64,000 nucleotides of DNA from the NCBI GenBank assembly GCA_035541875.1, contig DATKML010000025.1, positions 149 to 64,148 on the forward strand, written 5' to 3'. Of this stretch, positions 37,249 through 61,959 are shown in pieces. This DNA comes from Candidatus Binataceae bacterium (GTDB lineage Bacteria > Desulfobacterota > Binatia > Binatales > Binataceae). Position numbers and translations under genes: made by a program. The notes under the pieces are model-generated. The model ran no database searches. It was not told the origin of the DNA and saw nothing but the letters and a program-made list of their open reading frames with translations. Position 1 is the stretch's first letter. Every line of letters starts with the position of its first letter.

Positions 37249-38682
37249 TTAACGGCTGAAGCGAGGTGTTACGGCGAGTGCAAAGGGGTCGATTATAGCG
37301 GCCAAGTCTAAAAGGAATGCGTCGTCGGCGATACGCCCGATCACTCTTTCGCGGCGAAACGCCTCGGCAATCGCCATTGGATTGATCGCACGATGCGTAA
37401 TCCGCAGGGCGCGAGATTCGAGATGTTTACCGGGTTGCGAGCCCGATCCGATCTCCGCCTCTGATGCTACTATCTGAATATTAAATGCTACTCCGAGACG
37501 TTCTGCGAGAAGATCGCGCGCACGTTCCGCAATTTGTTCGAGTTCACCGGGTTTGCGCGAGAGCAGGCGCAGCGTCGGGAGCTCTTCGCTTAGCTCGCGG
37601 CTTTGGCGATAAAGCCTGAGCGTCGATAAAAGCGCTGCGAGCCGCAGCTTGTCGCATCGGATAGCCCGCCACAACGGATTTGCTTTGAGCCGCTGAATCA
37701 GGGCCCCTCGCCCGACTACGATTCCCACCTGCGGCCCGCCAAGCAACTTGTCCCCGGAAAAGGTCACGAGCGAGGCTCCCGCCGCGACACGCTCTGCCAC
37801 GATCGGCTCGCGCGGAAGTCCATACTGCTGCAGATCGATCAGCGCGCCAGCGCCCAAGTCCTCGACGACATCGAGGGCGTGCTCGCGCCCCATTTTTACC
37901 AGTTCCGCCAGATCCACTTCGGAGGTGAAACCGACGATTTGATAATTCGACGGATGCACTTTCATCAGGAGTGCGGTGTCCGGGTTAATCGCGCCAACGT
38001 AATCCCGTGGATGGGTCCGGTTGGTGGTACCGACCTCACGCAATCGCACTTGTGCCTGTGTCATCATGTCGGGAATGCGGAAGGCTCCGCCAATCTCGAC
38101 CAGTTCGCCGCGGGAGACGATTACTTCCCTACCTGCCGCAAGAGTATTCAGCACGAGCAGAACCGCTGCCGCGTTGTTATTGACCACCGTTGCGGCTTCT
38201 GCGCCGGTTAAGGCACAGAGGTCGCTTTCGACCAGCTCGTCGCGATCGCCTCGGCCACCGGTGGCGATCGAGTATTCGAGATTCACTGGCGATCGCGCCG
38301 CCTGCACCATCGCTTCGACCGCGCTCTCGGCCAGCAGCGCTCGCCCTAGATTGGTGTGCAACACGACGCCCGTCGCGTTCACCAGCGGAACAAGGGCCGG
38401 GGCGTCATTCGCGATCGCTTGATGGGCGCGCTCCAGCACGATTCGCACCAAGTGCTCGCGAGTTTCACCGGAGCTGTGGGTTCCATCTGCGATAGCGCTC
38501 CGGAGATCGGTCAGCGCACGTTGAATCAGGGTCTTGAGATAGGAGTGGCTAAAGCGGACGAGGGACAAGTCGCTTTCGGCGGCACTCAGGCATTCTTCAA
38601 CGGACGGGAGGTTGCGGAACGCTCGTGCACGCTCATCATCGCGACCGAGAGAAGAAGTCTTCTTATCCGCATTCGACGCCAT
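37249..38682 (-). CDS. selA: L-seryl-tRNA(Sec) selenium transferase
   Basis: NATGVVLHTNLGRA, VNNNAAAV, EVGTTNRTH, KVHPSNY, FSGDKLLGGPQ. Confidence 0.96.
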   Translation of the reverse strand: MASNADKKTSSLGRDDERARAFRNLPSVEECLSAAESDLSLVRFSHSYLKTLIQRALTDLRSAIADGTHSSGETREHLVRIVLERAHQAIANDAPALVPLVNATGVVLHTNLGRALLAESAVEAMVQAARSPVNLEYSIATGGRGDRDELVESDLCALTGAEAATVVNNNAAAVLLVLNTLAAGREVIVSRGELVEIGGAFRIPDMMTQAQVRLREVGTTNRTHPRDYVGAINPDTALLMKVHPSNYQIVGFTSEVDLAELVKMGREHALDVVEDLGAGALIDLQQYGLPREPIVAERVAAGASLVTFSGDKLLGGPQVGIVVGRGALIQRLKANPLWRAIRCDKLRLAALLSTLRLYRQSRELSEELPTLRLLSRKPGELEQIAERARDLLAERLGVAFNIQIVASEAEIGSGSQPGKHLESRALRITHRAINPMAIAEAFRRERVIGRIADDAFLLDLAAIIDPFALAVTPRFSR

Positions 38683-38719
38683 CGCCCGATTATAGATCGA
38701 TTGTCTCGGTTGCGTCCCG

Positions 38720-60125: not shown

Positions 60126-60686
60126 ATGGGTCCATTTCCGAAAGGGGTTTTTCTCACCAAGGGTGTCGGACGGCATCGCGAGAAACTCAACGCGTTCGAA
60201 CTCTCACTGCGCTCAGCAGGGATCGCCGAATACAACCTCGTGCGCGTGAAATCGATTTTCCCACCGAACTGCAAGCTGATCTCCCAGCAGGAGGGTCAGC
60301 GCTACCTGACTCCCGGGCAGATCGTCTTTGCCGTGATGAGCGATAATGCGACTGACGAGCCGCATCGGCTGATTGCGTCATCGGTCGGAGTCGCGATTCC
60401 GTCGAACTCGGCTCACTACGGCTACCTGTCGGAGCATCACAGCTACGGCGAGACCGAGCAGAAGGCCGGTGACTACGCGGAAGACCTCGCTGCGATGATG
60501 CTCGCGACGATCCTCGGTGTCGATTTCGACCCGAACTCCAGCTATGACGAACGCAAGGACATCTGGCGCGTCTCCGACAAAATTGTCACCACGCGCAACG
60601 TGACGCAGACGGCTATCGGCGATCGCGACGGGCTCTGGACCTCGGTCGTCGCTGCTGCTGTGTTCGTCGATTTGCCGGCCAAGTAG
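60126..60686 (+). CDS. pdaD: Pyruvoyl-dependent arginine decarboxylase homolog
   Basis: VFLTKGVGRH, AFELSLRSAGIAEYNLVRVKSIFPP, GYLSEHHS, AAMMLATILG. Confidence 0.85.
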   Translation: MGPFPKGVFLTKGVGRHREKLNAFELSLRSAGIAEYNLVRVKSIFPPNCKLISQQEGQRYLTPGQIVFAVMSDNATDEPHRLIASSVGVAIPSNSAHYGYLSEHHSYGETEQKAGDYAEDLAAMMLATILGVDFDPNSSYDERKDIWRVSDKIVTTRNVTQTAIGDRDGLWTSVVAAAVFVDLPAK

Positions 60687-60734
60687 TCGCGATCGCCGCT
60701 GGACGCGATCCAGCCTCAGCGCTACGCTTTAGCT

Positions 60735-60965
60735 ATGGCGATCCAGATTCTCTATTGCATGCCGTGAGGCTATCGCGCCCGCGCGGCCAGTTTGGCCGAT
60801 TCGCTCAAAGCCCGCTTTAGTGCCGACGTTGCGATTAAGCCCGGGCGCACCGGTCAATTCGATGTGCTTATCGACAACGAACTGATCTTCTCCAAGGCTA
60901 CCGTTGGACGCTTTCCCGTCGATGGCGAGGTCGAAGAGATCATTGCCAAGGCGCACCTGACCTGA
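60735..60965 (+). CDS. SelW/SelT/SelH (Rdx) family selenoprotein, CxxU, 76 aa (absent from the ORF track)
   Basis: MAIQILYCMP-U(TGA 60765-60767)-GYRARAASLA...GRTGQFDVLIDNELIFSK...GRFP..EVEE. Confidence 0.9.
60784..60798 (+). promoter_or_regulatory. Candidate bacterial SECIS hairpin
   Basis: CGGCCA-GTT-TGGCCG, loop starts with G, 22 nt after the UGA. Confidence 0.6.
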
Positions 60966-61144
60966 CTCTTTCGCCGCTAAGGGTCCTTCTTGCCTCGATT
61001 TTTAACCCTCCAGCCGCCCGATTCCGCTAGATCAATCAATACCCGTGGATGATGAGCGAATTAATTTGCGCTCCTCCGACGAATTTTGTATTAAACCGCA
61101 ACTCAGCGACTGATTTGATGGTTCAGGCCTCGGCCTCTTCAATG

Positions 61145-61158
61145 TGAATGATCATTCA
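61145..61158. promoter_or_regulatory. Perfect 14-bp palindrome, candidate operator
   Basis: TGAATGATCATTCA in an AT-rich intergenic region about 55 nt upstream of the hydrolase. Confidence 0.45.
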
Positions 61159-61212
61159 GCCAAAGATGTGTTAAGTTCTAGTTAAGACGAGCGGGGCGTG
61201 AAGGATACAGGA

Positions 61213-61959
61213 ATGAGCAACAACCTCAGCTTCCTCAACCTGATCCAGGAATTCAAAGCGATTGGCGAGTTCGCGACTTTCGCCAATACTGCGTGGACGT
61301 GGCGATTGGCGCCCCGCACACAGCGACCACAGGCGATACTCCTGATCCCTGGGTTCATGGCCGGCGACGTGACGCTCTATCCGTTTGCCAACTGGCTGCG
61401 CTCCAAGGGTCATCAGGTCTTTTTCTCCGGTATCCTCGCAAACACTGATTGCCCGCGACGGGCCGTGAATCGACTGGAGAACATCCTTCAGGCGCAATTC
61501 GATCGCCACGGCGAGAAGATCGTCGTAATCGGGCACAGTCTGGGTGGTATCTATGCCCGCGAACTCGCGCGCCGGATGCCCCAATGTGTCGAGCAGACCA
61601 TCCTGATGGGTTCACCGGTCCAAGGACCGGGTCAGCACTCCCATCCCTTCGTGAAGATGCTCGCTACGCTAACGATGAAGGTGCATGAGAAGACCAAAGG
61701 ATGTACCTGTCAGATGGAGAACATCTGCGGAGTCCATTCCGATACACTGCCGCCTGACGTTCCCGAATCGCTGATCTTTTCCAAGTCGGACGGTATCGTG
61801 AACTGGATGAGCTGTGTGGAGTCAGGGCCGAACGTTCAGGCGTTCGAAGTGGATTCGACCCACATGGGTTTGCCCTACAACCTCGATACGTTGCGTGTTG
61901 TGCATCGTCTGCTGGAGTCGCGGACAGAAGAGGACGAGGTTGCGAAGCGTCCTCACTAG
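61213..61959 (+). CDS. Alpha/beta-hydrolase (esterase/lipase-like)
   Basis: LLIPGF, GHSLGG, SKSDGIV, STHMGL triad. Confidence 0.85.
   Translation: MSNNLSFLNLIQEFKAIGEFATFANTAWTWRLAPRTQRPQAILLIPGFMAGDVTLYPFANWLRSKGHQVFFSGILANTDCPRRAVNRLENILQAQFDRHGEKIVVIGHSLGGIYARELARRMPQCVEQTILMGSPVQGPGQHSHPFVKMLATLTMKVHEKTKGCTCQMENICGVHSDTLPPDVPESLIFSKSDGIVNWMSCVESGPNVQAFEVDSTHMGLPYNLDTLRVVHRLLESRTEEDEVAKRPH

Follow-up and report, generated by a model that had tools for sequence, protein, structure and literature searches.

A short reading frame interrupted by an in-frame TGA may end there, may be read through with an ordinary amino acid, or may be recoded as selenocysteine (Sec), and which of these applies at one locus of an uncultured bacterium is the question considered here. 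The locus lies in a stretch of 64,000 nucleotides (hereafter the window) from contig DATKML010000025.1 of GenBank assembly GCA_035541875.1. The host lineage, Candidatus Binataceae (Binatia), is known solely from soil, peat, and wetland metagenome-assembled genomes (MAGs). A preliminary description made from the letters of the window had proposed a hidden CxxU selenoprotein of the SelW/Rdx family on the forward strand, and this proposal has held up on the family assignment, the Cys or Sec at the TGA column of homologs, the SECIS-type hairpin, and the complete Sec machinery. In our assessment, the locus (selW) is very probably a functional gene that encodes a SelW-like selenoprotein of the Rdx family with 76 residues. 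The UGA at codon 11 would be recoded through SelB, Sec-tRNA(Sec), and the hairpin, the product would be a redox protein, and the gene probably has its own promoter. The features concerned are listed in Table 1.

Table 1. Positions of selW and associated features in the window.
Feature	Position	Strand	Basis
SelW-like (Rdx family) selenoprotein gene (selW), 76 codons + TGA stop, C8-x-x-U11	60735..60965	+	Translation, profiles, AlphaFold2 model
In-frame TGA read as selenocysteine (codon 11)	60765..60767	+	Same codon in 90/90 ortholog copies; aligns with Cys of CxxC relatives
SECIS-type hairpin CGGCCA-GUU-UGGCCG, 6 pairs, G-first triloop	60784..60798	+	Folding, bSECIS criteria, ortholog conservation
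Promoter-like element, -35 TGGACG (60700-60705), 17-nt spacer, -10 TACGCT (60723-60728)	60700..60728	+	Position-specific signal in orthologs
Pyruvoyl-dependent arginine decarboxylase gene (argDC), upstream neighbor, context only	60126..60686	+	PF01862 193.9 bits, TIGR00286 120.7 bits
selA, L-seryl-tRNA(Sec) selenium transferase	37249..38682	-	TIGR00474 553.6 bits (cut-off 267.9)
57-aa TTG-started remnant, artefact of stopping at the TGA	60792..60965	+	ORF list; matches Rdx profile positions 19-73 only
Antisense shadow ORF (75 aa)	60729..60956	-	No Pfam match; frame broken

The selW Gene and Its Product

Translation of the forward strand from the ATG at 60735 to the TGA stop at 60963-60965, with the TGA at 60765-60767 read as Sec (U), gives a product of 76 residues, MAIQILYCMPUGYRARAASLADSLKARFSADVAIKPGRTGQFDVLIDNELIFSKATVGRFPVDGEVEEIIAKAHLT, whose redox motif is C8-M-P-U11. 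The complete Rdx-like protein obtained in the preliminary description by reading through the TGA after C-M-P is present in the sequence, and so is the family pattern reported downstream of it (G-x-F-D/E-V, IFSK, GRFP): G-Q-F-D-V, F-S-K, and G-R-F-P show little or no variation among 30 orthologs. The TGA is not a base-call or sequencing error, because 451 bases around selW are identical, with zero differences, in contigs of four wetland metagenome runs. No other Rdx-family gene was found in the genome.

The product scores 66.1 bits against PF10262 (Pfam Rdx, curated cut-off 22.6) and 55.1 bits against TIGR02174 (NCBIfam CXXU_selWTH, curated cut-off 34.2). Against NF041051 (SelTWH_Campy), a Campylobacter-type equivalog model, it reaches 71.7 bits, which is below the cut-off of 88, and it is therefore assigned to the subfamily and not to that equivalog.

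An AlphaFold2 model built on 30 orthologs (pLDDT 91.9) contains a strand at residues 2-7, a helix at 14-28, three further strands, and a helix at 65-74, and the CxxU motif is predicted to sit between strand 1 and helix 1. The thioredoxin-like beta-alpha-beta-beta-beta-alpha fold of the Rdx family is thus seen in the predicted structure. The best PDB matches of this fold were 2FA8, 2OJL, 2P0G, and 3DEX (TM 0.85-0.91, rmsd about 1 Å), followed by MIEN1 (TM 0.78), mouse SelW (TM 0.69), and thioredoxins. The seven PDB matches returned by a sequence search were MIEN1 (2LJK, E = 1e-9) and six bacterial SelW-related proteins, and all seven have the second Cys of their CxxC in the TGA column; CMPU is matched by CEPC in MIEN1 and by CTQC in the bacterial Rdx proteins. 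The selW product would have a minimal thioredoxin-like fold (beta1-alpha1-beta2-beta3-beta4-alpha2), in which Cys8 and Sec11, between strand 1 and helix 1, could form a reversible selenenylsulfide, so that the protein would act in thiol/selenol redox reactions.

Conservation of the In-Frame TGA

Ten homologs were returned from 5.8 billion database proteins, and all of them are fragments of 46-84 residues. One of these (P0003) is identical to the 57-aa remnant of the window, and some are named "selT/selW/selH-like putative selenoprotein." Every one of the ten begins after the TGA, as expected from the earlier remark that standard pipelines would truncate or miss the gene. The ORF track, said to show an antisense shadow ORF alone, does so at the default threshold of 60 aa, and at 40 aa the TTG-started remnant appears too. 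The antisense ORF was rejected as a gene: it has no Pfam match, and stops interrupt the corresponding frame in 10 of 20 orthologs.

Fragments starting after the TGA are all that the table-11 ORF lists and the ten database entries contain, which is what would be seen if the TGA were a true stop and the locus were either a decayed gene or a gene for a 57-aa protein initiated at the TTG at 60792. Decay does occur among the orthologs, three of which carry frameshifts. A 57-aa product, however, would be without strand 1 and the whole redox motif, covering only profile positions 19-73, and the orthologs speak against an untranslated N-terminal part. These were gathered in two ways, by the selW protein itself and by the argDC gene as an anchor regardless of selW; the pooled set has 90 copies, some loci having been fetched in both samples. 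Of the 40 relatives examined, 23 belong to the family of the window's genome, and 21 of these carry an ortholog with exactly one in-frame TGA. The TGA occupies the same codon after C-x-x in 90 of 90 Binataceae ortholog copies, conservation at the protein level extends to both sides of it, and Sec is kept throughout the full-length Binataceae copies examined. In the part before the TGA, conserved codons vary synonymously among 20 sequences, namely I5 (ATT 11, ATC 9), Y7 (TAT 7, TAC 13), and C8 (TGC 17, TGT 3), and the conserved L6 does likewise. The ten N-terminal codons are therefore translated in the same frame as the rest. That all 90 copies retain the TGA and the ten codons before it, with silent changes at conserved residues, is unexpected for untranslated DNA, and the promoter signal described below stands at a fixed distance from the ATG at 60735, not from the TTG. 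A true stop at this position is consequently regarded as extremely improbable, and the frame is treated below as that of a 76-residue selenoprotein.

Alignment with Rdx homologs, one of the checks proposed at the outset, places Sec at the TGA column in 90 of 90 Binataceae copies and Cys in G036, G032, and the PDB relatives. The Cys forms CGPC (G036) and CTQC (G032) come from elsewhere in the class, where further Sec forms also occur.

Three orthologs (G010:C1:2991818-2992031, G014:C7:43043-43256, and L048:4174-4387) are split between two frames by a frameshift or an assembly error. The TGA and the argDC neighbor are still in place in the G010 and G014 copies, and the L048 copy lies about 1.2 kb from argDC. 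These three copies are possibly recent pseudogenes.

The SECIS-Type Hairpin

The short hairpin with a G-first loop that had been noticed downstream of the UGA is present at the place described. Nucleotides C60784-A60789 pair with U60793-G60798 around the loop G60790-U-U, 22 nt lie between the UGA and the loop G, and the energy is -9.9 kcal/mol (centroid, in context) or -8.6 kcal/mol (isolated). In the bSECIS model, a bacterial SECIS has an apical loop of 3-9 nt, an upper stem of 4-16 bp, a G in the first two loop positions, a UGA-to-loop distance of 16-37 nt, and a minimum free energy of at most -7.5 kcal/mol (PMC13188914). Applying this model, another of the checks proposed, placed the window hairpin within all four published limits, with the loop GUU (or AGUUU with the A-U closing), 6 pairs, 22 nt, and -8.6 kcal/mol. 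Hairpins that pass are found at about 5% of random positions and after 4% of random TGA triplets in this genome of 58% G+C. Given this background, a single occurrence is weak evidence, and the case is carried by comparison among orthologs.

A strict version of the scan, in which no bulge is allowed, was passed at the same position by 84 of 90 orthologs, and both Cys forms failed it. The hairpin of the genome's own selD (-7.4 kcal/mol isolated) and two distant Sec forms (L108 and L109) failed it as well, so that a negative result from this strict scan is uninformative. In 85 distinct sequences, seven stem pairs are each kept in 77-85, and compensatory double changes were found at two pairs (27-39, G-C to C-G; 29-37, C-G to U-A) along with U-G intermediates. 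No copy departs from the loop G-U, and this includes four that have Gly (GGT) in place of Ser (AGT). Synonymous diversity is zero at Ala18 (GCC in 16 of 16) and at Ser19 (the rare AGT in 20 of 20); at other equally conserved codons of 4- to 6-fold degeneracy it is 0.3-0.75, and two other conserved serines use TCN. The hairpin is thus under constraint at the RNA level; the main grounds are its conservation, the frozen synonymous sites, and a small number of compensatory changes, and distant Sec forms were drawn on as well.

Other measures gave no signal. Covariation in the first 20 orthologs was not above that of shuffles (one compensatory change, with 98 of 500 shuffles as good), and the stability of the 66-nt region does not exceed that of shuffled sequence (z = +1.1). 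Rfam gave no SECIS family match in the whole window at gathering thresholds, and in 60700-60900 under permissive settings the sole match is a chance one (E = 7.8). The stem of the window copy is weaker than the family consensus (-8.6 vs. -12.0 kcal/mol) owing to Asp22.

In the fdhF SECIS of Escherichia coli, as in the window hairpin, a short GC-rich upper stem is closed by A-U and the apical loop contains a G-U, which in fdhF is the contact for SelB. The apex CAGUCUG of most Binataceae copies presumably resembles that of E. coli fdhF, CAGGUCUG. Counted from the U of the UGA, the G-U lies at nucleotides 26-27 in the window and, we take it, at 23-24 in fdhF, and the window SECIS, presumably, differs further in having no bulged U and a loop one nucleotide shorter. 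Sec forms in other families of the class, L107-L109 (G025, G039, G031), have retained the apex, as CAGUCUG or CGGUCUG, but their stem is different (CCGUC/GACGG). In L107 the G-U is shifted 4 nt closer to the UGA, and the SECIS register is therefore not fixed across the class.

Selenocysteine Machinery of the Host

The selA gene, reported earlier at 37.2-38.7 kb, is found there on the minus strand (Table 1). Absence of selB or tRNA-Sec from the genome had been named as a finding that would speak against a selenoprotein; selB, selC, and selD were all found. SelB scores 372.3 bits over the full length of its model and SelD 390 bits, both above their cut-offs, and selD has an in-frame TGA of its own. 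The tRNA-Sec was detected on contig C42 by ARAGORN and by Rfam RF01852 (68 bits, cut-off 47). Across relatives, selB is present in 24 of 26 genomes with the TGA form of selW, the two exceptions being a 75%-complete MAG and a MAG in 430 contigs; in the two 100%-complete genomes that lack selB, selW is either absent or present solely in the Cys form.

The selB and selD genes adjoin on contig C52:39510-42872 (loci L001 and L003). The TGA of selD is at the catalytic Cys position (…KAAG-U-AGKLGP…), so that SelD is itself a selenoprotein, and a hairpin with a G-first triloop, GGGUCC-GGC-GGACCU, follows 17 nt downstream.

Low-level readthrough of UGA that is independent of Sec is known in bacteria, and the residue inserted in the selW product is here a prediction from sequence. 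The UGA could accordingly be read as Trp or Cys by near-cognate insertion, or TGA could be generally reassigned. General reassignment conflicts with the use of TGA as the commonest ordinary stop (868 of 2182 long frames in the genome) and as the stop of selW itself, from which the genetic code is concluded to be standard. Against insertion of Trp or Cys stand an intact and complete Sec pathway that co-occurs with the TGA form across relatives, the coincidence of the TGA with the catalytic residue of CxxC/CxxU, and a SelB-type hairpin after the UGA that is constrained as RNA. Readthrough by anything other than Sec is rated very unlikely. Under Sec insertion, the UGA at codon 11 would be recoded during translation: SelB carrying Sec-tRNA(Sec) would bind the small hairpin, which has its G-U apex 22-24 nt past the UGA, and would deliver selenocysteine to the ribosomal A site.

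Probable Promoter and Transcript Start

The -10 hexamer of the promoter-like element in the window ends 6 nt before the ATG of selW, and there is no Shine-Dalgarno sequence at this place. When the upstream regions of the orthologs are anchored at the ATG, TTGA is found at -35 to -32 and TAnnnT at -12 to -7, the spacer being 17 nt, and each key position carries about 1 bit of information. In 57 of 70 orthologs this signal keeps the same spacing to the ATG, and 54 of them are without a Shine-Dalgarno sequence. It is retained where selW sits 0.6-2.1 kb from argDC. A scan of 60600-61250 for consensus promoters and terminators returned nothing, the window hexamers TGGACG and TACGCT being below threshold. 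A search for RNA runs containing this stretch yielded none.

Leaderless mRNAs are typified by a -10 element whose end falls some 6-7 nt ahead of the start codon and by the lack of a Shine-Dalgarno sequence, and the comparative signal gives selW this arrangement. From these sequences we infer that selW usually has its own promoter, which would give an mRNA with little or no leader. A sigma-70-type promoter in the 48-nt gap after argDC would transcribe selW in most Binataceae, probably including the window's copy, and its placement would let the transcript start at or next to the AUG. The idea that leaderless-type promoters are routine in this genome was considered and rejected: the peak of Shine-Dalgarno motifs is at -14 to -10, and the TTG/TAnnnT pattern occurs at the start in 9 of 3317 crude starts (13 of 7945 when shorter ORFs are included), in front of unrelated genes, a frequency of about 0.3% at most.

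A more specific design may be envisaged, which we regard as a serious possibility that falls a little short of probable. In most Binataceae, a leaderless selenoprotein mRNA would be made from a dedicated promoter, SelB-dependent recoding would take place 30 nt from the 5' end without a Shine-Dalgarno sequence, and the SECIS would lie at nucleotides 50-64, this design being swapped in a minority for a Shine-Dalgarno sequence and co-transcription with argDC. If so, the leaderless and the Shine-Dalgarno/argDC lineages would form a natural pair of expression designs for the effect of the mode of initiation on Sec insertion. A literature search for leaderless bacterial selenoprotein mRNAs found nothing relevant.

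Upstream of selA (38683-38700, minus strand), a perfect TATAAT lies at -12 to -7 from the ATG, an offset equal to that of the selW -10 box; no obvious Shine-Dalgarno sequence and no convincing -35 were seen in this region.

The Arginine Decarboxylase Neighbor

The preliminary description had called the pairing of selW with the arginine decarboxylase gene unexplained. The adjacency on the same strand, with argDC ending 48 nt upstream of selW, is real; the pairing itself has proved to be a gene order confined to Binataceae, with a promoter-like element in the gap. Within the family it is frequent: selW directly follows argDC in 63 of 80 argDC-anchored loci, 7 further loci have it within 2.5 kb and nine do not, and the order mutase, decarboxylase, selW spans many genera.

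This frequency, the shared strand, the 48-nt gap, and the lack of a detected terminator would all suit an operon in which selW is functionally coupled to argDC, for example as a redox partner in polyamine metabolism. Co-transcription is indeed likely in some relatives, since 12 orthologs without their own promoter lie 13-72 nt after argDC and five of these have a GGAG-type Shine-Dalgarno sequence. An operon would show adjacency beyond close relatives and no internal promoter. Outside Binataceae, however, argDC is not the neighbor of any of the five homologs (three Sec and two Cys forms) that come from other families of the class, and in 57 of 70 orthologs the promoter signal is present, staying with selW when the two genes are 0.6-2.1 kb apart. 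The two genes are also found apart, selW directly following the mutase at one locus and nine argDC loci having no selW within 2.5 kb. We know of no chemistry that links the Rdx/SelW-like and arginine decarboxylase families. Functional coupling as an operon is thus judged unlikely. As the gap holds a promoter-like element and most orthologs have a promoter of their own, selW need not share an operon with argDC, and the link between the two genes appears to be positional rather than functional.

Two loci differ from the common gene order. At L020 (G024:C108) no decarboxylase gene stands between the mutase and selW, and at L019 (G012:C76) the last 24 argDC residues alone are detectable upstream of selW. 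In both, argDC seems to have been lost or rearranged locally and selW to have stayed in place.

Relation to Known SelW-Like Proteins

SelW-like selenoprotein genes have been known in bacteria for about twenty years. In a survey of the Sargasso Sea, SelW-like CxxU proteins were the most abundant selenoprotein family, with 48 genes (PMC1088965, 2005), and in 2006 SelW-like proteins were catalogued in bacterial genomes, Cys homologs being remarked on as rare (PMC1794560). An NCBIfam model exists, and the window gene is a genuine further member. It shares with the bacterial SelW-like selenoproteins a length of about 75-100 aa, the N-terminal CxxU, and a hairpin within the coding region with G in a small apical loop (PMC1088965; PMC1794560), and the rarity of Cys homologs in Sec-using organisms, reported for the family, is seen here as well. 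It differs from them in its Binataceae host, in its conserved position after argDC, and in a promoter placed for a leaderless transcript. In a literature search, no report of a selenoprotein from Binatia or Binatota was found.

The same fold is predicted for the window protein as has been solved for Cys-form Rdx proteins of bacteria (2FA8, which is Agrobacterium Atu0228, 2OJL, 2P0G, 2OBK, 2OKA, and 3DEX), for human MIEN1 (2LJK), and for mouse SelW (2NPB). The bacterial Rdx structures and MIEN1 have CxxC, whereas the window protein has CxxU, with the redox motif at the same place. By sequence it is closest to MIEN1 (E = 1e-9) and not to the roughly 105-aa bacterial YCTQC type, whose N- and C-terminal extensions it does not have.

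The locus leaves the understanding of the biology of the SelW-like family unchanged. What is specific here is the host lineage, the retention of Sec in all full-length Binataceae copies examined, a well-sampled minimal SECIS, and a probable leaderless promoter. The practical value concerns annotation. Every retrieved database copy, across an abundant uncultured family of soils and wetlands, either misses or cuts short selW together with its Sec codon and SECIS, and corrected annotation adds a universally retained selenoprotein to the Binataceae proteome. With a Sec-containing SelD, the SelW-like protein, and the full machinery, the lineage is dependent on selenium. The 85 distinct sequences also provide clean comparative data on a minimal SECIS overlapping the coding region of an alpha-helix.

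SelW-like proteins of Binataceae occur in two lengths, a short form of about 76 aa, to which the window's copy belongs, and a long form of about 100 aa (L031, L033, L036, L039, L040, L042, and L043, among others). The long form has a conserved C-terminal tail, …ALKEGKELPP…G-x-V-G-R-x-L-x-K-L-R, that is absent from the window's copy.
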